From contig CBDHDG010000006.1 in NCBI GenBank assembly GCA_965261595.1, positions 288,001 to 352,000 of the forward strand: a DNA stretch of 64,000 bases, in the 5' to 3' direction. Below, piece after piece: positions 2,436 through 63,540 of this stretch; position 1 is the stretch's first letter, and each line of letters opens with the position of its first letter. Source of the stretch: a bacterium (GTDB taxonomy: Bacteria > UBA8248 > JACPRG01 > G963555815). Below the pieces are notes generated by a model. It had not been told where the DNA came from and did not search any database. It saw only the letters and a list, made by a program, of their open reading frames with translations. Position numbers and translations under genes: made by a program.

Positions 2436-3050
2436 TTGCCCGCACCCGCGCGCTTGACATACATCCAGTGCGTCCACTGAGCCTGGTGCTTTCTGGCGAC
2501 CGGGCGGTTGCACGACGTGAAGAAAACCTATCGGGACCGGCTCGAGATCCGGTACAAGACCTTCCTCCTGGCCCCCACGCCGGAAGCCCGATCGCTCAGC
2601 AAGGAAGAGATCCTCGGCCATTGGGCCATGGTCAAGGAACACCCGGGGGGCGAGCGGGTCAACCCCGCGCTCATGGCGACCCGCGATTTCCCCTACCCCC
2701 ACTCCATGCCCGGCGCGGTGGCCATCAAGGCGGCCGCGGCCCAGGGCCCGGAGGCCGAAGCCCGCTACGTCGAGCGGATCGAGGAGGCCCACTTGGTGGA
2801 CTGCCTCGACATCGCCGATGATGGCGTCCTCATCGGCCTCGCCCGCGACCTCGGGCTGGACGTCCCCCGGTTCGAGGACCTCTACCGGAACGCCGATTTG
2901 GAAGGGGCCGTCCGGCGCGACCAGCAGGAGGCCTCGGAGCGGGGAATCCACTCCACCCCCACCGTCGTCCTGCCCGACGGACGCGTCGCCGTGGGCGCCC
3001 AGCCCAAAAATATTTACGAGACCATCATCCAGGAGCTTTTGGGGAGCTGA
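2436..3050 (+). CDS. DsbA/FrnE-family thioredoxin-fold protein, probable selenoprotein (CVH-U-AWC)
   Basis: SD AGGGAGG, then TTG 2436 in frame with ORF 2508..3050; reads MPAPARLTYIQCVH*AWCFLATGRL with TGA 2478-2480 at the first Cys of the usual CPWC motif; C-terminal GIHSTPT and VGAQP are typical of FrnE. Confidence 0.85.
2496..2511 (+). promoter_or_regulatory. Putative SECIS hairpin for the DsbA-like gene
   Basis: GCGACC-GGGC-GGTTGC stem-loop; G-starting loop 21 nt after the UGA. Confidence 0.6.
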
Positions 3051-5625: not shown

Positions 5626-7134
5626 TCAGGACTGTAGGGCCGGCCGCGGAGCGATTTTCAAGAGCAGAAAGATCCGCTGGTCTCCCCGCTGAATGAGGAG
5701 GAGGGTCTCCCCGCCCTTCAACCCCTGAAGGATTTCCCGCATTCCCTTTTCGGACCGGACGGCCTGCAAACCGATGGAGCGAACGATGTCTCCGCGTCTC
5801 ACTCCGGCCCGGTCCGCGGCGCTTCCGGGGTCCACGGCGCCGACAATCAGGCCGGCCGGGTCTTCGAGCCCCAGCCGGGAGGCCATGGAGGGTGAGAGCG
5901 GGCGAAGGTCCAACCCAAAGGGCGGGTGAGCCGGCTTGGCCGGTTTGGACGGACCGATTTTGGAAGTCGTCCGGGATTCCCGCAGCTCCCGGACCATTAC
6001 CGGGATCACCAGGCTCTCTCCGCCGCGAAAGACCTGAAGGGGCGTGGGCGCTCCGATCCCCGCCCGCGCCAAGGCCCTTCCGAAATCCTGGCTCCCCCGC
6101 AGGGGGAGACCGCCCAGGGACAAAATCACATCACCGGCCCGAAGGCCCGCCCGCCCGGCCGGCCCCCCTTCCCGGACGCGGGCGATCAGAACCCCTCCCT
6201 TCCCCGCCCGTGGAAGTCTGAAATAGCGCGCCAGCTCCGGGTCCATCTCCTGAATCGAGACTCCGATCCAACCCCGCCGGACCCGGCCGTGCGCGCGAAG
6301 GTCGGGGAGCAGGCGCCTCACCAGATTGATGGGGATGGCGAAGCCGATCCCGGGCGCGCCCGAGACGACGGCCGTGTTCACGCCGATGACCTCTCCCCGA
6401 AGGTTCAAAAGCGGTCCGCCGCTGTTGCCCCTGTGGATGGGGGCGTCTGTCTGGAGGTATCCGCTGAAGATCGCGCCCTCCAGCGCCCTCCCCTTCGCGC
6501 TCAGGATTCCGGCCGTCACGGTCTCCTCCAGACCGAAGGGGTTTCCGATCGCCAGGACCCAATCGCCGACGCGGGCCCCGGCGGAATCACCGAGGCGCGC
6601 GCCCGGCAGCGATTTTTTCGAATGAATCCGCAGCAGGGCCAGGTCCGTCAGGGGGTCCGCGCCGACCAGGCTCGCCTGCCGCCACTCGCCTCAGTAGAGC
6701 CTGACCCGAATCTCGGCGGCGCCCTCGACAACGTGGTGGTTCGTCAGGATCTCTCCCCGGGCGCCGATGAGGAAGCCCATCCCGGTTCCCCCCTCCCCCC
6801 CTCCTCCCCCGAAAGAGGGCCTTTCGCCCGCCGCGGTCTCGGCCGGGCCGGCCGCGTCCCGGTTTTCAAACATCCGGTCGAAGAACTCTCTCAGGTCGGT
6901 CGACAGCCCGCCCCTTCTCGCCCGGACGCCCGGGTTTCGGGTGCTGACGTGCACCACCGAGGGCCGGAGCCCGTCGGCCAGCCCGGCGAAACCGGGCGGG
7001 GCCGCCCGCCGCGCCCTTCCTTCCACGGGAGGGGGGCCTTGCCCCGCGCGCGGCGGCGAGAGAGGCCCCGCGGCGCAGGACCCGAGCACCCAGCCCGAGA
7101 GCGCGAATGCCGCCCAACGGGCGGCGTTGGACAT
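5626..7134 (-). pseudogene. HtrA/DegP-family serine protease (lipoprotein-like signal, trypsin + 2 PDZ) interrupted by one in-frame TGA at 6691-6693
   Basis: ORFs 6691..7371 and 5626..6519 share a frame; ILTNHHVV...[27 protein letters not shown]...[15 protein letters not shown]. Confidence 0.8.
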
Positions 7135-7309
7135 GGGTCGATTCGGCATTACCGAGAACCTTCCCCGTCGCCGCGGGCGCTCCGCCCTCGGCCGGATAAA
7201 AGGAAAAGCCCGAGAGCACCTGCGGGCCCTCGGGCTTGCGTTGAACGTTGAACCATCGAAACATCCCCACGCGGATGCTTCCTCCCATCGCGGCCGGACC
7301 GCAACGGGA

Positions 7310-7765
7310 TCAGGTATAGTGGCCGAGCACGAATTCCAGCTTCGTCTTCCCCTCGGGCAGGGGAACGACAATCGCCTCTTTGTCGCAGAACGCCTCGCAC
7401 AGTTGGCATCCTACACACTCCTTCTCATGCACCTTGGCCACCACCTGGACGTCTTCCCAGCCCTCGGCGTCTTCGAGGCTGATGCAATCGAACGGGCAGA
7501 TTTCGACACAGTAGTTGCAACCGTTGCACAACTCTTCGATCACAATCGCCTTGGGCATCTCTTTGGGCCGGATTCGGGGAATGACCTTCCCGTCTTCGTC
7601 CAGGATGCATTCCACCGGGCAAAAGCGGCCGCAGACATCGCAGTCGATGCACAAACCCGGGTCGATGACGTACAACTGGTCCCGCCGGCCGGTAATCGCG
7701 TCCGTCGGGCACTTAATCTCACAGATGCTGCAACCGATACACGTATCCGCGATGAAGTGAGCCAT
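7310..7765 (-). CDS. Polyferredoxin (four 4Fe-4S motifs)
   Basis: Four CxxCxxCxxxC motifs in 151 aa from ATG 7765. Confidence 0.92.
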   Translation of the reverse strand: MAHFIADTCIGCSICEIKCPTDAITGRRDQLYVIDPGLCIDCDVCGRFCPVECILDEDGKVIPRIRPKEMPKAIVIEELCNGCNYCVEICPFDCISLEDAEGWEDVQVVAKVHEKECVGCQLCEAFCDKEAIVVPLPEGKTKLEFVLGHYT

Positions 7766-12427: not shown

Positions 12428-12877
12428 ATGCTCTCTCTCACGAAAAAGACCGATTATGCGATCCTCGCGCTCAGTAGCTTGGCCTCCGTGGATGAGGGCA
12501 AGGTGCTCAATGTGCGGGAGATTGCGACGCAATTCGACCTTCCCGCCGAGCTGTTGGCCAAGGCCATGCAGTGCCTGGCGCGGGAGGGTCTGGTCATCTC
12601 GTATGCGGGCCCCGCGGGCGGATATTCGCTGGCCCGCGACCCGGTTGAGATCAGTGTGGCCGACATCGTGTTGGCCCTCGAGGGCCCCCTGAGGATAGCC
12701 AGCTGCTTCGATGAGGACAGTCCCAATCTTTGCGCCGCCATCGAAAAGTGCACCTTGCGGGAGCCCATTAAACGACTGCAACAACGGCTCTTCGAACTGC
12801 TGGACGGCATCTCGCTGGCGGAGATGAGCCAAGACCTCGTTGGAGTGAGTGATGAAACTTCCCATCTACATGGATAA
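12428..12877 (+). CDS. iscR: Rrf2-family regulator (IscR-like)
   Basis: [18 protein letters not shown], three C-terminal Cys; first gene of the isc operon. Confidence 0.85.
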
Positions 12878-14066
12878 TCACGCCACCACCCCGGTGGACC
12901 CGAGAGTGTTGGAGGAGATGAATCCTTACTTCGCACAGGACTTCGGCAACGCGGCCAGCCGCAACCATTCCTTCGGCTGGCGGGCGGAGGAGGGGGTGGA
13001 CGAGGCCCGGGCGCGCGTGGCGGCGCTGATCAACGCCGATCCCAAAGAGATCATCTTCACCAGTGGGGCCACCGAATCGGACAACCTCGCGCTCAAGGGC
13101 GTGGCGGCGCTTTACAAGGAGAAGGGCAACCACATCATCACCAGCAAGATCGAGCACAAGGCCATCCTGGACAGCGCCAAGACCCTGGAGCGCCAGGGGT
13201 TCGAGGTGACCTACCTCGTGCCGGACGAATACGGCCGGACCTCGCTGGAGAGCGTCGAGGAGGCCCTGAGAGACGATACGATTCTGGTGTCGATCATGCT
13301 GGCCAACAACGAGATCGGGACCATCAACCCCATCGCCGAGATTGGGCGGTGCGTCAAGGAGCGGGGGATCGTCTTTCACACCGACGCCGTCCAGGGGGTG
13401 GGGAAAATCCCCGTGGACGTCCAGGCCATGAACATCGACCTGCTCTCCCTGTCGGCGCACAAGATTTACGGCCCCAAAGGGGTCGGCGCTCTTTACGTCC
13501 GGCGGAAAAAACCCCGCATTCGTCTGGCCCCAATCATCGACGGCGGGGGACACGAGCGCGGCATGCGGTCGGGCACGCTCAACGTGACGGGGATCATCGG
13601 CCTCGGCAAGGCCTGCCAAATCTGCGGCGAGGAGATGGATGAGGAGAATGGCCGGCTGATCGGCCTCCGGGACAAGATCCACAACGAAATCACCGAGCGT
13701 CTGGATGAGGTCCACCTCAACGGCCATCCGACCGAGCGGCTGCCTCATTCGCTCAATCTGAGCTTCGCCTACGTGGAAGGGGAATCGATGCTGATGGGGC
13801 TCAACGAAATCGCCATCTCATCGGGCTCGGCCTGCACGTCGGCGACGCTGGAACCCTCCTACGTCCTGAAGGGCATCGGACGCGGAGACGAGTTGGCGCA
13901 TTCCTCCCTGCGCTTCGGCCTGGGACGTTTCAACACGGAGGAGGAAGTGGATTACACCATCGGGCGCGTGGTGGAGGTCGTCGCCCGCCTTCGCGAGATG
14001 AGTCCGCTGTACGAGATGGCCAAGGAAGGCATCGACCTGAGCACCATCAAGTGGGCTGAACACTAA
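12852..14066 (+). CDS. iscS: Cysteine desulfurase IscS
   Basis: [30 protein letters not shown]. Confidence 0.97.
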
Positions 14067-14122
14067 GAACGTGTCGGACCACAGTCCGAGCGGGACATAA
14101 ACAATAGGGAAGGAGCGGCAAC

Positions 14123-14509
14123 ATGGTTTACAGCGACAAAGTCGTGGATCATTTCAACAACCCCCGAAACCTGGGGAGCCTGGACAAGTCGGACCCCGCC
14201 GTGGGGACGGGGCTCGCCGGCGCGCCGGAGTGCGGCGACGTGATGAAGCTTCAGATCAAGGTCAATGATCAGGGCGTCATCGAAGAGGCCAAGTTCAAGA
14301 CCTTCGGGTGCGGCAGCGCCATCGCCAGCTCCAGCCTCGCCACCGAGATGATGAAGGGCAGGACGCCGGACGAGGCCCTGGCGATCAAGAACACCATTAT
14401 CGTGGAAGAGCTCAGCCTTCCCCCCGTCAAGATTCACTGTTCGGTTCTGGCGGAAGACGCGATCGTTGCCGCTGTCAAGGACTACAAAGCAAAGAAAACC
14501 GGGGCGTAA
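14123..14509 (+). CDS. iscU: Fe-S scaffold IscU
   Basis: GAPECGDVM, KTFGCGSAIASSS, LPPVKIHCS. Confidence 0.97.
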   Translation: MVYSDKVVDHFNNPRNLGSLDKSDPAVGTGLAGAPECGDVMKLQIKVNDQGVIEEAKFKTFGCGSAIASSSLATEMMKGRTPDEALAIKNTIIVEELSLPPVKIHCSVLAEDAIVAAVKDYKAKKTGA

Positions 14510-14536
14510 GCCTCCATCCAAGGAAAGGAGACGCGG

Positions 14537-14860
14537 ATGATCACCTTGACGGGGACCGCGATCAAACAGGTCAAGCATCTCTTCGATGAGCAGAACCTCC
14601 AGGATTACGCCCTCCGGGTCGGCATCCAGGGCGGAGGCTGCTCGGGTCTCTCTTACACGCTGGGATTCGACTCCGAGATCAAAGAGAAGGACAAAGTGTT
14701 CGAAATCGAGGGAATCAAGGTCGTGGTCGACATGAAGAGCCTTCTCTACCTCGGCGGGACGACGCTGACGTACGAGGAATCCATGATGGGCGGGGGATTC
14801 CGGTTCGAGAATCCGAACGCCAAGCGGACTTGCGGCTGCGGAAGCTCCTTCACCGCCTGA
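14537..14860 (+). CDS. iscA: A-type Fe-S carrier IscA/HesB
   Basis: GGGCSG, NPNAKRTCGCGSSF. Confidence 0.95.
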   Translation: MITLTGTAIKQVKHLFDEQNLQDYALRVGIQGGGCSGLSYTLGFDSEIKEKDKVFEIEGIKVVVDMKSLLYLGGTTLTYEESMMGGGFRFENPNAKRTCGCGSSFTA

Positions 14861-15035
14861 CTCCCTGCCCGGCAGGGGCTGGAGATCGCTGAAGTTGGGA
14901 ACGGGGGTCTTTTCGGGATGAGGCATGCCGCCTTCTCCGAAAAGGCCCCTGATTTTTGGCGCGAACCGGCTGAACGTCCGGGCGAAAGGACAACCAGGGG
15001 AGGGTGACCGACTTTTCGGGAAGGGGTGGCCGAAC

Positions 15036-15737
15036 ATGGACAAGACCGGACCGGATTCCGGGCAAGCCGCCAGACACCTGTGTTGGGACTGCAATCAGGA
15101 AACCGCCGGAGGGCCTCTTTGCGAGCATTGCTCCAAGATCCAGCCCGCCGGACCGGGCACAGACCACTTTCAGTTCATGGGGCTGCCGCGGCGGCTTCGG
15201 ATCGACGTCCAGGACCTGGAGCGCCGCTTCTACGGCCTGAGCCGGACTCTCCATCCGGATTTTTATCAGAACGCCGAATCCTACGAGCAGCGGGTCAGCC
15301 TGGAGAACTCGGCCGTTCTCAATCGGGCGTACCGGGCGCTTCGGGAGCCTTTTGCGCGGGCCGAATACCTGGTGAAATTGGAATTCGGGTCGGACAAAGA
15401 GCTCGTCCCCTCCCCTCCGGATGAGTTTCTGGAACAGGTCTTCGAGTTCAACGAAAGGCTCCAGGAATTTCAGTCTGAAGACGACGAAGGGCGAAAGAAG
15501 GCGCTGGGCGCGGAGTTGAAGGAAGACCAACGCCTCTTCGAGGAAAGGGAGGCCGCCCTGCTGTCGCGCCTGGATGACCTGTTCGGCCGCTGGGACGCCG
15601 CCGCGGACGCAGGGGGGGGGGGGGAAGACCCGGCGGAGACCCTCGAAGACCTGAAGACGGTGCTTTCTCAGCGCAAATACATCCAAAACGCCGTGAGAGA
15701 CATCACGGAGGCCCTCCATTGCCATACGTCAGTCTGA
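15036..15737 (+). CDS. hscB: Co-chaperone HscB with N-terminal CxxC...CxxC knuckle
   Basis: CWDC/CEHC, HPD J-domain motif, [13 protein letters not shown]. Confidence 0.92.
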
Positions 15738-17590
15738 ACCGTTCGGGAAGCCCGGACCCGGATCCCATCATCGGAATCGACCTGGGAACGACCAAGAGCG
15801 TGGCCGCCTACATGGACGGCGACGAGCCCCGGGTGATCCAGGATGAGGACGGGGACGGCATCCTCCCCTCGGTGATCGGGATCAGCGATTCCGGGTTCAT
15901 CGTGGGGAAGCGGGCCCGGCGGGAAGCCGTTTCGCGGGCGGACCGGACAATCTATTCGATCAAGCGGTTCATGGGGAGATCCCTCGAAGACATGGGGGAC
16001 GACCTCGAGTTCCTGCCCTTCGAGGTCTCGCTCGAATCGGGGACCGTCATCCACATCCGGGTCGGCGAGGCCGAATACACCCCGGCCGATCTTTCAGCGC
16101 TCATCCTGCGGGAGTTGAAGGAGCGGGCGGAACGGCGCCTGGGCCGCGAGGTCCGTAGGGCCGTGATCACCGTCCCGGCCTACTTCAACGACAGTCAGCG
16201 CCAGTCCACCAAGGACGCGGGCCGGATCGCCGGCCTGGAAGTGCTTCGCATCGTCAACGAGCCGACCGCGGCGTCGCTGGCCTACGGCCTGGACCGCGGG
16301 CGGGACGGCCTGATCGCCGTCTACGACTTCGGGGGCGGAACCTTCGACGTCTCCATCCTGAAGCTGCACGACGGGATCTTCGAAGTGCTCTCGACCTGCG
16401 GGGACTCACACCTGGGCGGAGACGATATCGACCACGTGCTCATCAAGCATTTCCGGCCCGCCGTTGAAGAAGCCGCCGGCCTGTCACTGCGGGACAGTCC
16501 GGCCGTCCTTCAGGCCCTCAAGGACGCCCTCGAAGACGCCAAGATTCAGCTGTCCGACGTGGAGCGCGCCGAGGTGATCGTTGCGGCGCCGGCCGGGGCC
16601 GAAGCCTTCCGGACCGGGTTGGACATCGAGACCTTCGAGTCCCTGATCACCCCGGTGGTGGATCGAACCCTGGCGCCATGCCGCCAGGCCCTGAAGGACG
16701 CGGGGGTCTCCCCCGCGGACCTGGACGAAGTGGTTCTCGTCGGCGGGACCACGCTCATTCCGCTGGTCCGCCGGAAGGTGGAATCCCTGTTCGGGAAGAG
16801 GCCCCATACGGAGTTGAACCCGCGCGAGGTGGTGGCCCTGGGCGCAGCCGTTCAGGCCGGCGTCCTGGCCGGGACCGTTCAGGACATCCTCCTGTTGGAC
16901 GTGACCCCCCTGTCTTTGGGCATCGGGGTGATGGGCGGGGTGACCAGCGTCCTGATTCCCCGCAACAGCACCATTCCCACCAGCGCCCACGAGACGTTCA
17001 CAACGTACGTGGACGGCCAGGCGTCCGTGGACATCCACGTGGTTCAGGGGGAGCGGGAGCTGGCGGCGGACAACCGAAGCCTGGCCCAGTTCCAATTTCG
17101 GGGGATCGAGCCGATGCCGGCCGGGATCCCCCGTATCGAGGTGAAGTTCCTCATCGACGCCAACGGCATTCTCAACGTGTCCGCGAAGGACACGAAGACC
17201 GGAAGCGTCCAGTCGGTCGAGGTCAAGCCGTCCTATGGACTCACCGACGAGGAAGTGGAGCGGATGATCCGCGAATCATTCGATTCCGCGGAGTCCGATC
17301 TCACGGCCCGCTTCCTCATCGAGGCGCGGACCAAGGCCGAAACCGTCATGCGGGCGGCCGAGAAGGCATTGGCCCAAGGGGCGGGCCTCATCGGTGAAGA
17401 CGAGAAGAAGGAGATCGAGGAGAACCTCGTTTCCATGCGGGACGCCGTTCAGGGCGACGACCGGGAGGTCATCCAATCCCGCCTGGATCGATTGAACGAG
17501 GCCTCTTTGCACCTCGCCGAGGTGCTCATGGACAACACGCTGAAGGCCGCCGTCGAGGACCACGCGGTTGAGGATTTCCTGACGGAATGA
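15719..17590 (+). CDS. hscA: Hsp70-type Fe-S chaperone HscA
   Basis: [34 protein letters not shown]; isc context. Confidence 0.92.
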
Positions 17591-17650
17591 ATCCGCCGCG
17601 GGGGTTCGCATCGCACGCCGGCCACACATGCCTTGAGGGGGGTGGCGCGA

Positions 17651-18067
17651 ATGTATCAAGTGACCTTCGTTCCGGAAAACGTCATGGTGGAGACTGAGGC
17701 GGGAGAAACCCTCCTGGACCTAGCCAACCGGAACGGCATCTTCATCGACAGCAACTGCGGCGGATTCTGCGCCTGCAGCACCTGCCATGTGATCATCAAA
17801 GAAGGCATGGAGCACCTGCCGGAGGCGACCGAGGAGGAGGAGGACCAGCTCGACGAGGCCACCGGTCTGACCCTGACCAGCCGCCTCAGCTGCCAATGCA
17901 TCCTCGGAGAAGAAGGACCCGGCGAGGGCGAGCTTGTGGTCGAGATTCCCCTGCACAACCGGAACGCCCCGGGGATCATCGGCGGCCACGCCCACGGGGA
18001 CGACGACCACGATCACGGGGACGATCACGACCACGTCGCCGAACACGCCCACAACGAAGGACATTAG
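17651..18067 (+). CDS. fdx: ISC 2Fe-2S ferredoxin with His/Asp-rich tail
   Basis: CGGFCACSTCHV, SRLSCQ. Confidence 0.92.
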   Translation: MYQVTFVPENVMVETEAGETLLDLANRNGIFIDSNCGGFCACSTCHVIIKEGMEHLPEATEEEEDQLDEATGLTLTSRLSCQCILGEEGPGEGELVVEIPLHNRNAPGIIGGHAHGDDDHDHGDDHDHVAEHAHNEGH

Positions 18068-19737: not shown

Positions 19738-20102
19738 CAAATCTCTCTTTCTGTCACAAAAAAAGGCCCGGCGAATCTCCGCGCCCTTCCTGCTCGGTTG
19801 GACCTACGCCTGGTTGACAGAGAGAAGTGGAATCCTTCTGGGTTACAGAAAACCCCCGTGAGCCGCTTGGGCCGCGGAGATTCTCATCAGGCGTACGGTC
19901 GTTGCATTGGGTCGGCGCTTCGAGAATATCCACTGATATAAATACTTAGCGCATCGGGAGGGATTAAGCAAATCGATTTACTCGGTCGAATCGAATAGGG
20001 TCGGACGTTAACTTTTGGATTTTTGCGCAGCGTTCCTCCCCCGCTCTAGGGTTTTGTTGGACACTCGATTGATCCATGATTCATGGAGAAAGGGGTGTCG
20101 CG

Positions 20103-20489
20103 ATGAACGAACAAAAGCAAGAGGGGGCTTTGGCGGAGGGCGCCCGCAGGGCGAACGGAGCCAAGGCCCCAGGGCATCGCAGTGAGCGGGGTCGGTTCTC
20201 CTGCCAGCGCAAGCGGGAGGCGGTCCTGCGTCTTTTGCGGGGCGAGAGCCTGGAGACGCTCTGCCGCGAGTTGGGCACGACAGCGGCTCGGCTTTCCGCC
20301 TGGCGCGAGGCGTTCCTTCGCGGGGGCGAGGCGGCGCTCAAAGCCCGCCCGGCGGATGAGCGGGACGAGGAGAACGCCCGGCTCAAGGCCAAGGTGGGCG
20401 AACTCACGATGGAGGGCGAGGTCCTGCGGGAGAAGATCGACCGCCTGGAGGCCGGCCGCCCTTTAGCCGGCAGGAGGTGGAGGCGATGA
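20103..20489 (+). CDS. IS3 OrfA (HTH + coiled coil)
   Basis: RKREAVLRLLRGE, LKAKVGELTME; ATGA overlap with orfB. Confidence 0.88.
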   Translation: MNEQKQEGALAEGARRANGAKAPGHRSERGRFSCQRKREAVLRLLRGESLETLCRELGTTAARLSAWREAFLRGGEAALKARPADERDEENARLKAKVGELTMEGEVLREKIDRLEAGRPLAGRRWRR

Positions 20490-21394
20490 GTCAGGCCCGC
20501 TTCACCTCCACGGGCAGAGCCTACGGCCTGAAGCGGGTGTGCGCCCTTTGGGGCTTGGCGCGCTCCACGGTCTACGCGCAACGGCGGCGAGAGGCGGTCC
20601 CCGTTCATGAACGCCCCACGCCCAATAAGCGCGGCCCTGTGGGCCCGTGCACCGATGCGGAACTCCTCGGCCACATCCGGCAGGTCCTGGAGGACTCTCC
20701 CTTCCATGGCGAGGGCTACCGCAAGGTGTGGGCGAGGCTGCGCTTCGCGGGCATCCGCACCAGCAAGGAGCGGGTGCGTCGCCTGATGCGGGAGGCGGGG
20801 CTTCAGGCCCCTCACCGGGTGGGCAAACCCCGAGGTCCCAAGGCCCACAACGGGACCATCCGCACCGAGCGGCCCGACCGAATGTGGGGCACGCACATGA
20901 CGACGACGGTGACCACCGAGGAGGGGATGGCCTCGGTGTTCGTGGCGGTGGATCACTGCTCGGTGGACTGCGTGGGGATCCATGCGGCCAAGAGCGGCAA
21001 CCGCTTCGAGGCCCTGGAGCCGATCCGGCAGGGGGTCGCCGAGCGCTTCGCCGGCTTGGAGGCGGACGTCGCCGAGGGGCTTAAAGTTCGTCACGACCAC
21101 GGCCCCGCCTATCTGTCCGATGACTTTCAGCGGGAGATCGCCTACCTGGGCATGACCAGTTCGCCCAGCTTCGTGCGGGCGCCCGAGGGAAATGGCTACT
21201 GTGAGTGGTTCATCCGCATCTTGAAGGAGAATCTCCTGTGGGTGCGCTCTTTCGCCACCGTAGAGGAACTGCGGTGGGCGCTGCTTGAGTTCAAGAACCT
21301 GTACAACCATCATTGGATTCTCGAGGGCTACGGCTACCGAACGCCGGCCCAGGCAAGGCAGGAAAAACTCGCTCAAGTTGCGGAGGCCGCATGA
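20486..21394 (+). CDS. IS3 OrfB integrase core; first DDE Asp replaced by His
   Basis: GYRKVWARL, WGTHMT (copy 2 has WGTDMT), HDHG, GNGYCEWF. Confidence 0.88.
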   Translation: MSQARFTSTGRAYGLKRVCALWGLARSTVYAQRRREAVPVHERPTPNKRGPVGPCTDAELLGHIRQVLEDSPFHGEGYRKVWARLRFAGIRTSKERVRRLMREAGLQAPHRVGKPRGPKAHNGTIRTERPDRMWGTHMTTTVTTEEGMASVFVAVDHCSVDCVGIHAAKSGNRFEALEPIRQGVAERFAGLEADVAEGLKVRHDHGPAYLSDDFQREIAYLGMTSSPSFVRAPEGNGYCEWFIRILKENLLWVRSFATVEELRWALLEFKNLYNHHWILEGYGYRTPAQARQEKLAQVAEAA

Positions 21395-21516
21395 GGTCGA
21401 ATACCCTCACCCGAGTGTCCAATAACCCAGGGGCGGTCCATTCCAGTCCCATGTTTATCCATCTCGGTCGACGGCAAGTCTCACGTGCAACCGAGAAAAG
21501 CATCGACCAAATTTCC

Positions 21517-21550
21517 GACCCATCCTCGCTCCGACCGGAGCCCGGGGGTC
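21517..21550 (-). promoter_or_regulatory. Putative SECIS hairpin overlapping the stop codon and 3' UTR of the radical SAM gene
   Basis: Minus strand GACCC-CCGG-GCTCC-GGTC-GGAGC-GAGGAT-GGGTC; GGUC loop 18 nt after the UGA. Confidence 0.7.
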
Positions 21551-22350
21551 AAGCTCACTGGTAGGCCAGGCTCTCTATCCCCTCCCGCTCCCTTCGGTCC
21601 ATCTCGGACCGGATCAAACCCACCGCCCGGGAGAAGGGAAAGATTTCGCCCGTCACCTGAAAATCCGGGTCCGTGGAGAGGGGGTGCCAGTAAACGCCGT
21701 CCCGGTCCACGCACACCTCCGGGAGGACTCGATCGGCGTAGAGGTCTTTGCCCCGCTTGGAGAAACCTCTTCGGATTAGTGGGCGGACAAAAACATCGTC
21801 CTTGTCGATACCCTTTGTGGAGAAAAATTCAACCAGCGCCGCCTCCCCCCCCCCCCCCCCCGCCGTCGGACTCGGCGGTTGCCGTTCCGCCGATGCGGGC
21901 TTTGAATCCCTGGTTCAGCAGGGCGTCCACCCCGCGCATCGTTTGAAGCCAGCTTCCCGAGCCCCGGTATAAGTCGTTGCGGTCCGGGCGGGCGCTGTCC
22001 ACGCTGACCTGTAAGGTCAAACTCCCCCCCTCCCCCGCCGGCAGGGCCTTCAGGCGCTCCATCCGGTGGGGGGTGAACAGGGTCGCGTTGGTCAGAACAG
22101 TCGTAGCAATCCGCCGGACGGCGTAGTCGAGGAGGTCGAAGATGCGGGGATGGATGAACGGCTCGCCGCCCGTCAGATAGAGCTCATCGAATCCGAGGGG
22201 GAGGGCCTCGTCCAGAAGCCTCTCGAACACATCGAGGCCGATGGCTCTCGGCTCGGCCTTGGGATGGGACTTGACGACACAATACGAGCACGAGAGGTTG
22301 CACTCGTAATTGGTGTAGACCCAAAGCCGGTTGGATAACTCGAACGCCAT
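21549..22350 (-). CDS. Rv1681-like radical SAM protein, probable C-terminal selenocysteine; frameshift in C17 run 21845-21861
   Basis: LWVYTNYECNLSCSYC, TGGEPF; the shifted frame continues EAALVEFF...RPLIRRGFS...PEVCVDRDGVYWHP...IFPF...ESLAYQ-TGA-GCT-TGA. Confidence 0.82.
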
Positions 22351-22927
22351 CTCCCCCGCTCCCACGCCCCGACCGGCGTCATTCAACCCAGCGCACCGAA
22401 AGCTCCCGGCCGCCCGGCGCCGTTTCGCGAAAGATGAAAATCAATCCCTGGAATCCATCTTGCCCGGCGGGCGGGCGTCGAGTCAATCTTCATTCAGCGC
22501 GTCCGTTCCGAAACGTGTCCCCGCCCCACGGCGGCAGAAAGGCTCGGATCGAGCGAGTCGGCGGCTTCCCGCTGTGCGGCAACACGCCGCACACGCTCGC
22601 GCACACCAGACTCATTCAGCCAACGGAATATCAGATGATTTTATTCCGGAAAAGGATCATTTCCGCTCCGCGTCTGGAAAATGGGGCGATCGCATTGAAT
22701 GTAAAATAACGTTTTCGTATTTGTGAATTCGGTCTTAATTATTTGCATTATAATAAATAAAGCGAATCCCGCCCTTTCCCTTGGTCAATTCTCCATTGGA
22801 CAGTCGGGTCCGTTTCAGCCGTAATGCGTGCGGCCGCGTTGCCGTCTACGGAATGATTTTTGCATTGGTCATTGAAAAGGATAATCACATTAAATCCCGC
22901 ATGTAATGATCTTCATTTGGGGGTGTA

Positions 22928-37901: not shown

Positions 37902-38604
37902 CTAGTCGTCGAAGAGGGGTTCCCGGCCGTTGATCAGCTCGATCATCTTCACCACCCGCTCGGCGCGCGCCACGTCCATGGTCTGATGAATTCCGTGGTG
38001 ATGATAGACGCTGGCCTGGGGCTCATAGACAATGTGATAGCCGGCCGCGATGACCTTCTTGGCCCAGTCCCGGTCCTCCACCCCGTTGATCTCCTCATCG
38101 AACGGGATGCGCTCCCAGACGCTTCGGCGAAGCATGGCGTTGGCGTTATGGAAGAAAGAGTCCTTGACCTGGATCTTCCGGTCCAGACCGAAGGTGTTCC
38201 ACAGGTCCCGTTTGTCGAAGGTGTGCGAATCGGGGAGCGGCTCCTGCCGTCCGTAGACGGCCGCCACCTCCGCCGGGCCGAAATTCACGGCCAGCCGGTC
38301 CAGCCACTTGTTGTGGACGGGAACGCAGTGGCCGGACAGGCAGACGAGAAGCTCCCCCCCGGACGCCTCGACGCCCCGGTTGAGGGCCCGGCCGTAGGAA
38401 AACTCGGATTCGCTGATCCCCACAACCTTGCAGTTGAAGTCCCGGACGATGTCCGCTGTCTCGTCATCGGACTCATTGTCCACGATGACGATCTCCCGGT
38501 TGGGATAATCCTGGAGGGTGGCCGCCGTCAGGCAGCGCCGGATCCAGGCCGCTTCGTTTTTTGCCCGGATGATGATCGAGATCAGGGGGGGGGGGGGAGC
38601 TCAT
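37902..38604 (-). CDS. GT2 glycosyltransferase; frameshift in the G13 run (38585-38597) just after the start
   Basis: ATG overlaps the neuB stop; LISIIIRAKNEAAWIRRCL, IVIVDNESDD, EDRDW. Confidence 0.85.
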
Positions 38605-39623
38605 TCCACCTCCACCAGCCCAAACGTGATGGGCTCGTCCTTGCGGATGTCATAGAGCGCCCGCCGGCCCAGAAGCCTGGGAAGCAGTCGCGGCGTCAAT
38701 CCCCGAAGCGGGGCCTTGGTGGAAAGCATTTCCCGTGTCAGAACCGATCCCCGGGGGATGTCCATCGCCGCCACCACCGACCGGCGCTCATCGTCGAAGG
38801 TATCGAGCTCTTCCGGCAGGACCCGTTTCTCGGCCGCTCCCGAAAGGGCCCGCTCGATCCGCCGGACGGCCTCCACCCAGCGCCGGAGTGGGTCGGGCTC
38901 GGCGCTGAAGGCGTGATCGGCCCCCGGCAGGCGGCGGTCCAGGGTGAGGCGCTTCTGGAGGACCCCCGCCCCCAAGGCCGCCGCGACGGGTCCGGTCAGG
39001 ACGCCGTCCTCATGGTCATCGTACCCGATGGGGCGATCGAACCGGCGGAGCCAGCTCAGCATCTGAAGCCGGCTCTCTTCCGCCGGTGTGGGAAAACACG
39101 CGACGCCGTGCAGAAGCGTGAGGTCGCATCCCTCTAAATGGCGGACGATCTCCGAGACTTCATCGGCGTCGCACGCGCCGGTGGATACATAGAGCGGACG
39201 CCCCCGGGCGGCCAGCGCCTCCAGGAGCGGCTGATCGGTGTTGCATCCCGGGGGGACATAGTAGCCGTCCACCTCGAGGGGATCGAGAAATTCCAGGGAT
39301 TTGAGGTCGTAGGGCGTTCCCCAGAACGCCGCCCGGCCCCGCGCCGCCTCCCGAAGCCGTCCGAAGGCCTCCGCGTCCAGGTCCAGCCTGCGGGCGACTT
39401 CCCGGGCGTTCGTCCCTAACTCGGGAAAGGCGGCGTTCGCCCGCCACAGGGCCTCCCGGCCCGAGGCCGACTCGGGAGAGCGCTTCTGGAAATTCACGGC
39501 GTCGCAGCCGCACTCGACGGCGACCTCCGCAAGTCTGCGGGCTCGCTCGAAATCGCCGTTGTGATTCACCCCGATCTCCGCCGCAAGGATGCGGCGAACA
39601 GGGTCGGATTGGCTATTGATCAT
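38601..39623 (-). CDS. NeuB/SpsE-like ulosonate synthase with SAF domain (degenerate active site)
   Basis: AEIGVNHNGD, STG, FPTP, GADH, C-terminal RRSVVAAMDI SAF domain. Confidence 0.85.
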   Translation of the reverse strand: MINSQSDPVRRILAAEIGVNHNGDFERARRLAEVAVECGCDAVNFQKRSPESASGREALWRANAAFPELGTNAREVARRLDLDAEAFGRLREAARGRAAFWGTPYDLKSLEFLDPLEVDGYYVPPGCNTDQPLLEALAARGRPLYVSTGACDADEVSEIVRHLEGCDLTLLHGVACFPTPAEESRLQMLSWLRRFDRPIGYDDHEDGVLTGPVAAALGAGVLQKRLTLDRRLPGADHAFSAEPDPLRRWVEAVRRIERALSGAAEKRVLPEELDTFDDERRSVVAAMDIPRGSVLTREMLSTKAPLRGLTPRLLPRLLGRRALYDIRKDEPITFGLVEVE

Positions 39624-45453: not shown

Positions 45454-46596
45454 TCAGTCCGGCCGGCCGGCGATCCGCTTCAGGACCTCCCGCGCCTTCC
45501 CGACCGAAACGGTCCAATTGTATTCGTTTTCGACCCGCCGGCGTCCGGCCTCGCCCATTGATTTTCTCAGGGCCGGATCCGCCAGGAGCCGGAGAACGGC
45601 CTCGGCCAGGGCGTCCGGGGAATCGGCGTCCACAACGAAGCCCGTCACACCGTCTTCCACGGTCTCGGGGGCGCCGCCGGATCGGCCGACGACGACGGGC
45701 TTTCCACAGGCCGCGGCCTCGAGGAAGGCAATCCCGAACGCCTCCACGTCGCCCGTCGCCGGGTCGGAAACGCTCGGCCCGATAAAAACGTCGCAGGCAT
45801 TGTAATACGCGTGAGGCGGCCGGCCCCACCGCTCAAACGAAACCGGGGGGATCCACTGGACGTGGTCCTCGACGCCCAGCTCGCGTGAGAGCGCCTTCCA
45901 TTTCCCCTCTTCCGGACCCTCCCCGACCAACACGTATCTGGCGTCCGGCGCTTTCGAGAGAACGGCCGGCAGGGCGCGAATCATGCGGTCGAAGCCTTTC
46001 ACGGCCCAAAACCGGCCGGCGGAGAGAATCACCGCTCCCGCCGGACGCCCCCCCCCCCCCGGTTGATCCCCGGCCAGGACCGCCGGAGGGGTGTCGGGGG
46101 AATACTTGTCCAGGGCCGCCCCGTGGAGAACCGTGTGAAGGATCTCCCGCCGGACGCCCAGGTCCAGGAGGCGGCCTTCGGCGTATCGGCTGACGGCGAA
46201 GACGGCGTCGGCGGCGTTGACCTGCGCGATGATCCTCGCCAGGTCCCGGCGGCCGTAGAGCTCGTTCCCGTGAAGGGTCAGGGCGACGGGGATTCCCCGG
46301 GCCCGTTTCGCCGCGAGGGCCCAGGTGAGAAAATCCGCCCGGTGGGTCACGAACAGGACGTCCGGCCGCTTCCGGACGCAACTCCTGAAACGCGCCCGGA
46401 GGAGGGGCTTCGCGTACGCCCGGCGAACCGGGCCTGAGCGGATCTCCCCGTCCCCCGCCCAATGCCGCACCCTGGAGCGGGCCAGAACCGTGACCCGCTC
46501 GCCCAGGCGGTCCAGCCCCCGGGCCATCTCGAAGGCGTAGGTCTCGACGCCCCCGGGGACGGGGGGATATGCGCCGGCCGTGAGGAGGATGTTCAA
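45454..46596 (-). CDS. GT4 glycosyltransferase
   Basis: YPPVPGGVE, HGNE, VKGFD, EAFGIAFLEAAACG. Confidence 0.9.
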   Translation of the reverse strand: MNILLTAGAYPPVPGGVETYAFEMARGLDRLGERVTVLARSRVRHWAGDGEIRSGPVRRAYAKPLLRARFRSCVRKRPDVLFVTHRADFLTWALAAKRARGIPVALTLHGNELYGRRDLARIIAQVNAADAVFAVSRYAEGRLLDLGVRREILHTVLHGAALDKYSPDTPPAVLAGDQPGGGGRPAGAVILSAGRFWAVKGFDRMIRALPAVLSKAPDARYVLVGEGPEEGKWKALSRELGVEDHVQWIPPVSFERWGRPPHAYYNACDVFIGPSVSDPATGDVEAFGIAFLEAAACGKPVVVGRSGGAPETVEDGVTGFVVDADSPDALAEAVLRLLADPALRKSMGEAGRRRVENEYNWTVSVGKAREVLKRIAGRPD

Positions 46597-51103: not shown

Positions 51104-52507
51104 TGGACCGCCCCTGGGTTATTGGACACTCGGGTGAGGGTATTCGACCTCATGCGGCCTCCGCAACTTGAGCGAGTTTTTCCTGCCTTGCCTGGGCCGG
51201 CGTTCGGTAGCCGTAGCCCTCGAGAATCCAATGATGGTTGTACAGGTTCTTGAACTCAAGCAGCGCCCACCGCAGTTCCTCTACGGTGGCGAAAGAGCGC
51301 ACCCACAGGAGATTCTCCTTCAAGATGCGGATAAACCACTCACAGTAGCCATTTCCCTCGGGCGCCCGCACGAAGCTGGGCGAACTGGTCATGCCCAGGT
51401 AGGCGATCTCCCGCTGAAAGTCATCGGACAGATAGGCGGGGCCGTGGTCGTGACGAACTTTAAGCCCCTCGGCGACGTCCGCCTCCAAGCCGGCGAAGCG
51501 CTCGGCGACCCCCTGCCGGATCGGCTCCAGGGCCTCGAAGCGGTTGCCGCTCTTGGCCGCATGGATCCCCACGCAGTCCACCGAGCAGTGATCCACCGCC
51601 ACGAACACCGAGGCCACCCCCTCCTCGGTGGTCACCGTCGTCGTCATGTCCGTGCCCCACATTCGGTCGGGCCGCTCGGTGCGGATGGTCCCGTTGTGGG
51701 CCTTGGGACCTCGGGGTTTGCCCACCCGGTGGGGGGCCTGAAGCCCCGCCTCCCGCATCAGGCGACGCACCCGCTCCTTGCTGGTGCGGATGCCCGCGAA
51801 GCGCAGCCTCGCCCACACCTTGCGGTAGCCCTCGCCATGGAAGGGAGAGTCCTCCAGGACCTGCCGGATGTGGCCGAGGAGTTCCGCATCGGTGCACGGG
51901 CCCACAGGGCCGCGCTTATTGGGCGTGGGGCGTTCATGAACGGGGACCGCCTCTCGCCGCCGTTGCGCGTAGACCGTGGAGAGCGCCAAGCCCCAAAGGG
52001 CGCACACCCGCTTCAGGCCGTAGGCTCTGCCCGTGGAGGTGAAGCGGGCCTGACTCATCGCCTCCACCTCCTGCCGGCTAAAGGGCGGCCGGCCTCCAGG
52101 CGGTCGATCTTCTCCCGCAGGACCTCGCCCTCCATCGTGAGTTCGCCCACCTTGGCCTTGAGCCGGGCGTTCTCCTCGTCCCGCTCATCCGCCGGGCGGG
52201 CTTTGAGCGCCGCCTCGCCCCCGCGAAGGAACGCCTCGCGCCAGGCGGAAAGCCGAACCGCTGTCGTGCCCAACTCGCGGCAGAGCGTCTCCAGGCTCTC
52301 GCCCCGCAAAAGACGCAGGACCGCCTCCCGCTTGCGCTGGCAGGAGAACCGACCCCGCTCACTGCGATGCCCTGGGGCCTTGGCTCCGTTCGCCCTGCGG
52401 GCGCCCTCCGCCAAAGCCCCCTCTTGCTTTTGTTCGTTCATCGCGACACCCCTTTCTCCATGAATCATGGATCAATCGAGTGTCCAACAAAACCCTAGAG
52501 CGGGGGA
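51104..52507 (-). mobile_element. IS3-family insertion sequence, copy 2 (1404 bp; orfA 52055-52441, orfB 51150-52058)
   Basis: Near-identical to copy 1; own 4-bp TSD GAGG (51100-03 and 52508-11); first DDE Asp intact. Confidence 0.93.
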
Positions 52508-52568: not shown

Positions 52569-54263
52569 CCGGGATTTCCCAGATGACCACTCTTAGCCAT
52601 CCTGCGGTCCTCCTGTGTCATCAAAGTACCCCATTTTACTACAGATTCAGGGTCTCTTTGCAGAACCCTCTGCTCAATCGAGGGGCAACGGCCGTCCTAA
52701 AGCCGCAATCCCTTGAAAACCCAGCTCTACCGGCACACTCAGGGGAGTTCGGCACAGACTGATCCCCCGTCTCCACCACGTCACTAAGCTTCCGGGCCAT
52801 CTGCTCCGTCATCCGGTATCTGGTACGGGAGGCGGTAACCACAACCGTCGAATTCGTTCAAGGATTGCCCTGAACAGTTGACGCGGCACGGCCACCTCGG
52901 CCATCTGGAAGGTGGTGTGCCGGGCGTGGGTGACCACCTTGGCCCCAATCTTAATCAGCTTCTCGCGTAACGTCGTCAGCGACCAGTGCTTCACCGCTCT
53001 GGGCAACGCCAGCCGCCGCAGGAAGTTTGCCAGGTTGTACGCCAAGGCAAATAGTTGCAAGCGGACCTGGTTCTCTTCAAAGCCGTGGCAGGACAGGCGC
53101 GTCCAGTTCAGGGCGTACTTGCCCTCCTTGATCCACTGCTCCGCCGTCCCACGCTGGTTGTAGAACCTCACGACGTTCTCTTCCCGCCAGTGCAGGTTGG
53201 TCACGATGAAGCTGACTCTTGGAAACAACTCGCCCTGGTGCCACTCGACCGCCACCACCACCCGGCGAGGCTTCTCCCAACTAGCCGCCTGATAGGAGAC
53301 GCTGTGGTAGAAGATAATGGGCCTTTTGGGCGGTCGGCCAACCGGCCGGGTCAGAAGGCATTCGATGTCCCTGTACAAGATGGCGTTGGCCGGAAGCCGA
53401 ATCGCATAGGAGTAGCCCTCCGCCTCAAGGTATCGGTACACCTCCGGCTTGGCAAATGCCGCGTCGCCTTGAAAAAACCGACAGACCTTCGCATCCCGGT
53501 AGCGAGCTACCACCGGCTCCAATACAGACCACCAGTCATCAGCGCTGTGGACCTTGCCGTTGCGCAACAGCGCCCGCTCCAGATCGCCAAACTGGTTGAA
53601 GCAAAACAGTGGGTGATAGCAGGTGCAGCCGAAGTGGCCGTTGTAGGAAGAGCCTTCCTGCTCACCGTGGGTCGGGCTGACCGAACTGTCCATGTCCAGG
53701 ATCAGCTTGCGAATCGGCTTGCGTTTGCGGACACGATCCACCAACACACCGGGCAGACCGCTCAGCGCCTTGAGGGGTTAAGGGGCCGGGTGAGGGTCTG
53801 CGTCTCGAATCGGCTCATCTGGCTGGTGGAGGCAGCGGTGTGATACTTCGCTCGCCCCCCAACCACCTGACGCATGGCGGGATCGACACAGAGCCGCTCG
53901 GCATCATTGGTGTCTTTATATCCTGCCAGGCGGCTGTAGACCGACTGGCGCACCAAAGCGGTGAGGCTGTGCCGGGTGTTCCCGCCCGTCCGTGAATCGG
54001 ACAGAAACCCCTCGGCCGCCTTCGTCAGCCCCAACACCTCATCCAGTTCACGATAGGCAAGCAAACCGGCGTCACTCGTAACCTTTGCTCCGTGAAACTC
54101 CAGCCTGAGCCGACCGTCGAATTGGAGCCTCAACGGCCTCTTTTTCGCTTCACCCATTGGGTCCCCTCGCAAGATGATGGCAGGGAGAGGCCAACACCTT
54201 GATTTTACACGAGAAAACGGCCTTCGGGGCGTTAAAAATTATCATCCATATGGGAAATGCGGG
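52569..54263 (-). mobile_element. IS1380-family element; transposase 52809-54157 frameshifted near 53770
   Basis: TIRs CCGGGATTTCCCAGAT / ATATGGGAAATGCGGG; SDAGLL, LDMDSS, YHPL, GDAAF, YNQRGTAEQWIKEGK. Confidence 0.88.
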
Positions 54264-54944: not shown

Positions 54945-55376
54945 TCAATCTGCCGAAGGTGATTCCGCTTCGGCCCCGACCCGGGGGTCGCCGAAGCCCA
55001 TCAGGTCCTCCTTCTTCCACTTCTCGAACTCCGCCAGGGCCCACATCCCCCGGGCGACTCCCCCGTAAACGACCGTCTGGAGAATCACCTCGCGGATCTC
55101 CTCGTCCGTCGCGCCGTAGCTCTTGCACCCGGTGAAGTGGACGCGAAGCTGCGCCGGCAGACCGGACATCATCAGCGAGGCGACGGCGCAAAGCTCCCGC
55201 GTCTTCTGGTCCAGAACGGTCCGGTCGTATAGAAACCCGAACACAAACTTTTGGAACGCCAGGGAATAGTCCGGGTCGTGCTCGGCCACCCGGTCGAAAA
55301 GCCTCTTCGCGTAATCCTCGCCGTAGCCCGCCGCGCAGCGGGCGAGTCCCTTGGGGTCGTATTGCGGATCGCTCAT
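54945..55376 (-). CDS. Carboxymuconolactone decarboxylase (CMD/AhpD-like) family protein
   Basis: LDQKTRELCAVA, QLRVH, GATDEEIREVILQTVVYGG. Confidence 0.88.
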   Translation of the reverse strand: MSDPQYDPKGLARCAAGYGEDYAKRLFDRVAEHDPDYSLAFQKFVFGFLYDRTVLDQKTRELCAVASLMMSGLPAQLRVHFTGCKSYGATDEEIREVILQTVVYGGVARGMWALAEFEKWKKEDLMGFGDPRVGAEAESPSAD

Positions 55377-55593
55377 CGGGTGGCCTCCTTGTTCCAAAAG
55401 CATCCGGGTGAATCCCCCGGGGGGGAGGAGAGGGAGGGGGGGTCCCCTCTGCTTTCGCGTATTCTCCGGTCCACGTGACTCCGCTCGGACGCAAAAGAGG
55501 GCGGCCCGCTCAGAGACCGCCCTCTTTCGGCGAACGGATGCGTTTCGGTGCAGCGTTGGGGTCTCCGGTCCGCCGGGCCTCCGGCCCTCCCCG

Positions 55594-62709: not shown

Positions 62710-63540
62710 TTAGTCCTTCAAAATTCTTCCGAGCTTATTCGAGAGGTTCGCGAACTCCTCCAGACTCAGCGTCTCCGCCCGGCGGGCGGGGTCGATTTCG
62801 CAGCCGGCCAAGACCTCGTTCACCCGTAAAGCCTCAAAATGGGATTTCAGGTTGTTCAGGAGCGTCTTGCGGCGTTGGGCGAAGGCCGCCCGGACAACGC
62901 GCTCGAAAAACGCCGGGTCGCCCACCGGCGCCCGCGGCCGGGCTTGGGGGATAAGCCGCAGGACGGTGGACACCACCTTGGGCCGGGGGGAGAAGGCGCT
63001 CGGGTCCACATCGAAACTGGGCTCCACCCCGCACCAGAGCTGGACGGCCAGGGAAAGCGTCCCGTACGCCTTGGAGCCGGCGCGGGCGGCGATCCGCTCG
63101 GCCACCTCCTTCTGGATCATCACAACGATGTCCTCGATATCCTCCCGCGATTCAAGCAGACGCAACAAAATAGCCGTGGCCGCATAGTAGGGGAGGTTCC
63201 CGACAAGCCGGTTCGCTCCCCCCCCCCCCCCGAGAAGGGATGAGAAGTCGAACTTCAACGCGTCGGCCTCCAGGATGGAGACGTTCGGCGCGGCGGCGAA
63301 TTCTTCGCGCAATTCGGCCGCGAGACGGGCGTCGATCTCCAGGGCGGTGAGACGGCCCGCCTCCCCCAGCGACCGGGCGAGGACCCGTGTGAGCGCCCCC
63401 CCTCCGGGACCGATCTCGATGACGCGGTCGCCCGGCCGGACGTGGATGAACTCGGCGATCCGGTCCAGGACAAACGGGTCTCGCAGCTCATGCTGGCCCA
63501 GACGGGCCTTCCTGCGGCGCGGCGGGATCGCCCGGCTCAT
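62710..63540 (-). CDS. rsmA: 16S rRNA adenine dimethyltransferase
   Basis: LGQH, IEIGPG, GNLPY, MIQKEVAER, FAQRRKTL. Confidence 0.95.
   Translation of the reverse strand: MSRAIPPRRRKARLGQHELRDPFVLDRIAEFIHVRPGDRVIEIGPGGGALTRVLARSLGEAGRLTALEIDARLAAELREEFAAAPNVSILEADALKFDFSSLLGGGGGANRLVGNLPYYAATAILLRLLESREDIEDIVVMIQKEVAERIAARAGSKAYGTLSLAVQLWCGVEPSFDVDPSAFSPRPKVVSTVLRLIPQARPRAPVGDPAFFERVVRAAFAQRRKTLLNNLKSHFEALRVNEVLAGCEIDPARRAETLSLEEFANLSNKLGRILKD

Follow-up and report, generated by a model that had tools for sequence, protein, structure and literature searches.

The gene lying between positions 22350 and 21549 on the minus strand of the 64-kb stretch of bacterial DNA analysed here (hereafter the window) would encode, with a probability that we put at roughly 0.85, a compact Rv1681-like radical SAM enzyme whose penultimate residue is selenocysteine (Sec), the UGA being recoded by the ordinary bacterial route. 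The codon that looks like a TGA stop in this widespread family very probably encodes Sec one residue before the true end of the protein. In the compared sequences, TGA alternates with Cys codons at this site, the codon following the UGA is conserved as a translated codon, and a hairpin with covarying stem pairs lies just downstream. The family is apparently absent from existing selenoprotein lists and would rely on the ordinary bacterial mechanism, with a selenocysteine insertion element (SECIS) in the 3' untranslated region.

The window gene (Table 1) opens MAFELSNRLWVYTNYECNLSCSYC..., with a GGGAG located 8 bases 5' of the ATG, and encodes a radical SAM core with the cluster motif CNLSCSYC (CX3CX2C, 22302-22279). 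Its first frame matched PF04055 with an E value of 3.4e-19 and 70.1 bits (cut-off 29.5), which places the protein in the radical SAM superfamily. One surplus base in a run of 17 G moves the reading from the first to the second frame. The NCBIfam model NF049973 matched the first frame over profile positions 72-223 (175.9 bits) and the second over positions 228-315 of 326 (67.6 bits); since both halves match a single model, they constitute one gene with a +1 break. The run falls within a variable Gly-rich loop of the protein, at a position where the related locus L001 has 4 G and intact relatives read DGG(GG)EAALV, and run lengths of 4, 7, ... 16, 19 would keep the gene in frame. The reconstructed protein (GGAG taken as one G, guided by the reference) has 264 aa and reads ...PEVCVDRDGVYWHP...IFPF...ESLAYQ. 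The earlier note on this DNA had described a radical SAM gene with one homopolymer slip and the end ESLAYQ-TGA-GCT-TGA, and all of these elements were confirmed in the window sequence.

Table 1. Location of the features described in the text; positions are those of the window unless a locus is named.
Feature	Location	Strand	Remarks
First frame of the radical SAM gene (163 codons)	21862..22350	-	ATG at 22350
G17 run (C17 on + strand) breaking the frame by +1	21845..21861	-	
Second frame of the radical SAM gene (101 codons)	21558..21860	-	ends ...ESLAYQ
UGA predicted to be read as Sec, penultimate residue	21557-21555	-	TGA/Cys column in relatives
GCT, predicted Ala, last residue	21554-21552	-	GCN in L001-L004
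Predicted true stop TGA	21551-21549	-	in-frame stop in relatives
SECIS candidate hairpin	21515..21552	-	apical stem-loop conserved; lower stem in window and L001 only
IS3-type element, 1404 bp, orfA/orfB, copy 1	20037-21440	+	flanked by TTCC
IS3-type element, copy 2, 99.6% identical	51104-52507	-	
Long G/C runs, examples	15612-15624, 38585-38597, 46048-46060, 63218-63231		
DsbA-like thioredoxin-fold gene with Sec-type TGA	2436-3050, TGA 2478-2480	+	PF01323
Second radical SAM gene, SPASM/twitch-type, about 365-380 aa, end C.GCGV.WSL	L006-L077, e.g. L055:3502-4602		directly upstream, ~30 loci
Stand-alone RAM (Lrp/AsnC ligand-binding) gene, PF01037, 80 aa	L006-L079, e.g. L055:5502-5741, L074:6810-7049		
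Cluster neighbour DsrE-like			18 loci
Cluster neighbour NUDIX			17 loci
Cluster neighbour DoxD-like			36 loci
Cluster neighbour GT-C-like membrane protein			30 loci
Cluster neighbour DUF2064 = TIGR04282			30 loci; 181 bits, cut-off 134
Cluster neighbour GT2			31 loci; one copy reaches TIGR04283, 191.6 vs cut-off 182
Cluster neighbour Rv1679-like acyl-CoA dehydrogenase			9 loci

A protein search with the read-through window protein yielded 1491 relatives at E <= 1e-5, 120 of which were listed. As the earlier note had anticipated for standard annotation, the predicted Sec end is missed in 119 of these 120 homologues, which stop exactly at the site of the window Q-TGA, after a conserved aromatic residue and one further residue (FT in 75, FQ in 24, YQ in 16, FR in 2, and FK in 2); named NCBI entries among the 119 are called just "radical SAM protein" or "hypothetical protein". 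The sole exception among the 120, P0050, continues ...FTCG. At the DNA level, 299 loci were confirmed in a scan restricted to a single genome per species, and the 80 top-ranking ones were analysed. Among these 80, the Sec column is occupied by TGA in 75 loci and by TGC or TGT in 5, with no TAA or TAG; the loci are mutually related, so that these counts do not represent independent events. The earlier note had proposed that homologue C-termini be aligned at the penultimate column, and the non-TGA homologues do carry Cys there in 5/5 cases (L005, L043, L044, L057, and L074). The end in aromatic-x-C-A that it gives for Rv1681-type proteins was not seen here: in all five, the TGC or TGT is followed by GGN and then a stop, giving the end F-T-C-G-stop, and Ala after Sec is found only in the window's own clade. 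The column was C/U without exception in the 65 aligned read-through proteins, and the only other invariant Cys residues are C17, C21, and C24 of the cluster motif.

The codons that follow the TGA are also under constraint. The next codon is GGN in 63 loci (GGA 16, GGC 21, GGG 21, and GGT 5) and GCN in four loci, L001-L004, which use all four third bases and make up the window's clade; the GCT of the window, itself uncounted, is shared with L001. Seven loci have a two-codon extension AGT-AAR (Ser-Lys; Ser-Lys/Asn in one tally), and one of the 75 TGA loci ends at a contig edge, where the extension is unread. Variation in the post-UGA codons is therefore synonymous only, within the Gly, Ala, or Ser-Lys types. 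The true stop after the extension is free to vary (TGA in 29, TAG in 24, and TAA in 21 of 74 loci). The reading frame is kept past the UGA for one or two constrained codons and then stops; the extension being of just two residues, no long downstream ORF backs its translation. Taken together, the invariant TGA, the constrained next codon, the unconstrained stop, and the Cys homologues form the classical signature of a Sec codon.

These data bear directly on two other explanations of the TGA. The first is that this UGA is a real stop and the hairpin some other 3' element, involved in transcript end formation, stability, or regulation, which we regard as highly improbable. An extension of only 1-2 codons agrees with such a stop; nevertheless, TGA is found in 75/75 non-Cys loci, against a background TGA use of about 43% (224 of the 523 neighbouring ORFs of at least 150 aa), the remaining 5 loci have Cys codons at the same column, and the following codon, which differs between loci only by synonymous changes, always precedes a stop in the same frame. 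The second, to which we attach a negligible probability, is that a standard amino acid (Trp, Gly, or Cys, for example) is inserted at the UGA, owing to an altered genetic code or near-cognate read-through. A UGA read as Cys would give a TGA/Cys-like pattern too, but TGA serves as a true stop in the same 224 neighbouring ORFs, in 29 of the family's own 74 true stops, and also within the window, and a hairpin placed at SECIS spacing and lost in the Cys forms is specific to Sec recoding.

Regarding this hairpin, its apical part in the window is GCUCC-GGUC-GGAGC (21541-21528), with the GGUC loop beginning 18 nt past the first UGA and the lower stem beginning within the second UGA. The earlier note had called it a strong hairpin with a GGUC apical loop. 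Its geometry and loop were borne out, but its strength as a single sequence was not: the 50 nt from the window UGA fold at -21.2 kcal/mol with z = -1.71, 11 of 200 shuffles folding equally well, and a 76-nt window piece folds at z = -0.36, indistinguishable from shuffles. Folding stability, marginal at 50 nt and no better than in shuffles at 76 nt, was accordingly dropped as evidence, and the hairpin is significant because it is conserved in relatives, not because it is stable. A structure-blind MAFFT alignment of 44 nt from the UGA in 73 distinct sequences revealed a 6-bp stem with a 5-nt loop, in which 91.8% of cells were paired, compared with 36-54% when the partner was slid by 1-3 columns, and two-sided changes occurred at 6/6 stem pairs (83 cells). 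None of 500 shuffles matched the observed values for cells paired, both-side changes, further pair types, and covariation score, whereas a fifth measure, the number of pairs with a both-side change, was matched by 127 of the 500. The spacer from the UGA to the stem measures 10-16 nt, with a mode of 12. Loops are CGUGC in 25 sequences and CGUGU in 16, with variants including CGUUG and the GGUC of the window's clade, and G-U is present in 66 of 73. Within the window's clade, the stem is preserved in 5/5 sequences, with a compensatory change from G-C to A-U in L003. A stem-loop soon after the UGA with a G(U) in the apical loop, as expected of a bacterial SECIS, is thus found across the aligned relatives.

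No comparable hairpin was found in the five Cys loci, and a covariance model built from the alignment did not match them at E <= 1. The model recovered its training sites and gave 3 weak extra matches in 878 kb; the window hairpin scored weakly (19 bits, E 0.17), though it is in the training set, and its match does not count as independent evidence. No Rfam SECIS family matched, either at the gathering threshold over the whole window or at E <= 10 over 21400-21700. As a terminator the hairpin was rejected, no terminator-like site and no T-run being present in 21300-22600. Hence, of the checks that the earlier note had put forward for the hairpin, covariation was found, the Cys loci have no such hairpin, and the element is not terminator-like. 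For the reading of the first UGA as a real stop, the marginal stability of the window hairpin on its own, the lack of a matching Rfam SECIS family, and the lack of Sec machinery in the 64-kb window are points in favour; on the other side stand the loss of the hairpin in the Cys loci, the missing T-run or terminator-like site, and the many loci in which a same-strand gene starts 45-140 nt downstream. Thus, the claim that the first UGA encodes Sec and the second is the stop is supported by TGA/Cys alternation, post-UGA codon constraint, and the covarying hairpin.

Under Sec recoding, SelB carrying Sec-tRNA(Sec) would bind the small stem-loop that begins about 12 nt past the UGA, the first UGA would be decoded as Sec, and the Ala codon and the true stop would follow. 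Because only these two codons come after the UGA, the whole SECIS would lie in the 3' untranslated region. Both the action of SelB on the hairpin and the presence of Sec machinery in the organism are presumed here: no match to selA, selB, or selD was found among the 44 ORFs of the 64-kb window, so the machinery is deduced indirectly, and no tRNA gene, tRNA-Sec included, was found in the same 64 kb, a span that says little about the genome.

The window does contain a likely second selenoprotein gene, encoding a DsbA-like thioredoxin-fold protein, which lends indirect support to the presence of such machinery. It has a TTG start after GGGAGG, a standard ORF call picks it up only from 2508 on, and the protein reads MPAPARLTYIQCVH-TGA-AWCF..., with the motif U-A-W-C and a DsbA domain from residue 14 (PF01323, E 6.5e-17). 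Full-length homologues have DVLC[APST]WC[YF] at the motif, and the closest ones (P0242, 78% identical) start just past it, like truncated annotations. A DsbA-like UxxC protein (form 1) is a listed selenoprotein family in the available sections of a 2026 review (PMC13188914). The best named relatives of the window LepA are labelled Nitrospinota (84%) and Tectomicrobia (80%), and genomes labelled Nitrospinota/UBA8248 are among the richest in selenoproteins according to the accessible part of another source (PMC13326102). Other candidates in the window were discarded. With 69 candidates, a GC3 scan for additional read-through genes lacked specificity, and eight read-through candidates compared with Pfam gave no new selenoproteins. 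The NeuB/GT2 and PdxA/KsgA read-throughs are adjacent genes sharing a frame by chance; at 37905-39623 (minus strand), a TGA and a Pro run part the NeuB/SAF gene from the GT2 gene within one frame, and the long ORF opposite them is probably spurious. An AhpD-like ORF (54945-55403) matched a (seleno)protein family weakly and has no Sec-type TGA. An HtrA/DegP-like protease gene (5629-7371, minus strand) has an in-frame TGA (6693-6691) inside its Trypsin_2 domain; this TGA aligns with Asp, not Cys, and is not followed by a hairpin, and the gene is probably broken or affected by an error, not a Sec gene. Other features of the window include a molybdenum/tungsten cofactor riboswitch aptamer (RF01055, 11074-11197, plus strand, 53.6 bits) and an isc-type cluster (12428-18064, plus strand) encoding an Rrf2 regulator, the cysteine desulfurase IscS, HscA, and a 2Fe-2S ferredoxin (17591-18064).

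As sequenced, the window copy of the radical SAM gene would make no protein, barring an assembly error or a run length that varies in the population. The locus is syntenic with L001, with 86-95% nucleotide identity, and L001 has no frame break; relative to it, the window gene has two G-rich expansions. The 64 kb contain six runs of 13-17 G or C, far above the expectation from composition. Three runs of 13-14 bases lie in frame inside genes, coding for short Gly runs, and the run at 15612-15624 is in no called ORF. Since these other runs are in frame, errors at homopolymers are not a general feature of the assembly, and the break in the radical SAM gene therefore reflects either true slippage or an error in the longest such run. 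An IS3-type element lies about 110 bp downstream of the radical SAM stop, leaving gene and hairpin untouched. The window also holds an IS1380-family transposase, split in two ORFs (52809-54172, minus strand).

It is conceivable, and in our view unlikely without being negligible, that the window copy is dead, i.e., that the G17 is real and the enzyme is no longer made, its ancestors having made the selenoprotein. The single base too many in the G run, the correct frame of the other 13-14-base G/C runs, the nearby IS3-type element, which is missing from L001 and has a second copy in the window, and the in-frame TGA inside a conserved domain of the HtrA-like gene would all fit gene decay. However, the G17 is the longest homopolymer of the window, where read errors are likeliest, both halves are conserved (98% identical to P0002, which is intact, and 88% to L001), the window and L001 do not differ in the Sec codon, Ala codon, stop, or hairpin, and the insertion lies outside the gene and the hairpin.

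As to the function of the predicted enzyme, the AlphaFold model of the L001 protein has a pLDDT of 91.3 and a pTM of 0.90, with a pLDDT of 77 over the last ten residues. Foldseek matched it to generic radical SAM cores at TM 0.54-0.69 (SuiB, SkfB, anSME, BlsE, DesII, viperin, and MoaA), without an auxiliary-cluster domain. The nearest solved proteins by sequence are BlsE, which is the best and matches over the core only, and SkfB, with DesII weaker (E 1.7e-4); neither sequence nor Foldseek searches found a close relative among solved structures. The substrates of BlsE and DesII are nucleoside-linked sugars, whereas SkfB matures a peptide. Since the conserved redox residues are the three cluster Cys and the C-terminal Sec/Cys, the flexible ...aromatic-x-U-G/A tail may reach into the active site, where its selenol or thiol might, at a guess, donate a hydrogen atom or hold a soft heteroatom substrate. 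The substrate on which such a C-terminal selenol arm would work at the active site may be nucleotide-linked or carry a heteroatom.

In Chloroflexota, a recurring gene cluster surrounds the Sec-type radical SAM gene (Table 1). The second radical SAM gene upstream has ordinary mixed stop codons and belongs to no specific family. The stand-alone RAM gene is located directly downstream in 58 of the 80 loci, with a gap of 45-140 nt, and in 44 loci it ends apparently at a TGA after 58 codons (codon 59). Beyond this TGA the frame runs for 21 conserved codons, [IV]T.GIA.AVGVRRTET.LVVW, and downstream of the UGA lies a hairpin with a stem of 9 bp and a GUG loop; in all five Cys-type loci (L043, L044, L057, L074, and L005) the column is Cys. 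The states of the two genes agree in 57/57 scorable loci (52 stop/TGA and 5 Cys/Cys). No NCBIfam model covering the RAM gene was found, and the terms "AsnC", "Lrp", and "PF01037" are absent from the available sections of the 2026 review (PMC13188914). The pattern in these loci makes the RAM-domain gene look like a second unlisted selenoprotein. The RAM gene is missing from the window and from L001-L004; the whole cluster is lacking in this clade, where a DEAD-box helicase gene is all that comes after the radical SAM gene.

TIGR04282 and TIGR04283 take their NCBI names from arsenosugar biosynthesis, the pathway to which the selenoprotein ArsS belongs. A tentative and rather improbable extension of the Sec reading would be that, in Chloroflexota and relatives, the radical SAM enzyme and the RAM protein form a two-selenoprotein module building an arsenic-, selenium-, or sulfur-bearing sugar or lipid. 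In such a module, the Sec arm of the enzyme and Sec59 of its partner might hold or pass the heteroatom, in parallel to ArsS, and the nucleotidyl-transferase-like, NUDIX, GT2, and GT-C proteins might activate and export the product. The linked RAM-domain candidate and the arsenosugar-type transferases would point to a pathway that can be tested.

Regarding novelty, the family is in no selenoprotein list that was compared; Haft and Tolstoy 2025 and BSepDB Table S2, which lay outside the comparison, might name it. In the available sections of the 2026 review (PMC13188914), the table has two radical SAM selenoprotein families, TIGR04167 (ArsS) and TrsS, and neither NF049973 nor Rv1681 is mentioned there; a 2022 review, in the part available, gives TIGR04167 as the only one (PMC9312934). 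The term "radical SAM" is absent from the deep-Sep paper, and a literature search returned no paper on Rv1681 with radical SAM, on NF049973, or on "selenodomain". If the Sec reading is true, hundreds of database entries would be two residues short and would lack the probable key catalytic residue, and the short list of radical SAM selenoproteins would gain a further enzyme. The relatives would also provide a large natural set of bacterial SECIS candidates located wholly within the 3' untranslated region, bacterial SECIS elements being placed inside coding regions in the consulted sections of the 2026 review (PMC13188914). Furthermore, the Sec/Cys switch would mark the C-terminal tail as functionally central, offering a handle on a family of unknown function, whose Cys forms would extend to actinobacteria.

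Several known systems resemble the one described here. Bacterial SECIS elements of the E. coli fdhF type are short stem-loops that carry G-U in the apical loop and lie about 11 nt past the UGA. The window hairpin is similar in its GGUC loop with an apical G-U, and differs in a 5-8 bp stem without an evident bulged U, in being wholly untranslated, and in matching no Rfam family. As for the position of Sec, the table of the 2026 review, in its available part, also contains several "star" families (UXX-star, KCU-star, and GUXX-star), with Sec adjoining the stop at a distance of 0-3 residues (PMC13188914). With Sec at the extreme C-terminus, a bacterial SECIS must sit beyond the stop codon in these families too. 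Nevertheless, their members are small, differ in fold, and do not belong to the radical SAM enzymes; the likeness drawn here is one of Sec position.

Among radical SAM enzymes, ArsS (TIGR04167) likewise has Sec/Cys near its C-terminus. The window piece scored 43.8 bits against this model, well under its cut-off of 300, and, unlike ArsS, the family studied has no Cys-rich C-terminal domain and ends in aromatic-x-U-G/A-stop instead of GxxU. TrsS (NF045646) appeared neither among the families matching five intact homologues at E <= 1e-20 nor in the top 25 of the 49 that matched the window piece.

The closest curated family is NF049973, the Rv1681 family of radical SAM proteins, also called MoeX. 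Intact homologues match it with E values of 1e-75 to 3e-88, the next-best family reaching about 1e-21 to 1e-29. The Rv1681-type assignment made in the earlier note therefore stands as far as the nearest family is concerned, but intact homologues (254-296 bits), like the window pieces, stay below the curated cut-off of 380 bits. Unlike NF049973, the family studied lacks about 70 N-terminal profile positions, and the name of the curated family carries no "(seleno)" tag. The two have in common the blocks W-x-Y-T-N-Y-x-C-N-x-x-C-x-Y-C and G-V-Y/F-W-H-P. At the C-terminus, P0050 aligns to positions 65-325 of the 326 of the profile, with its penultimate Cys at 325, and truncated forms end at 314-323, so the profile runs two positions past the apparent stop of the Sec forms. 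The likeness to the Rv1681 system also includes the gene neighbourhood, the Rv1679-like acyl-CoA dehydrogenase gene lying next to the radical SAM gene in nine loci.
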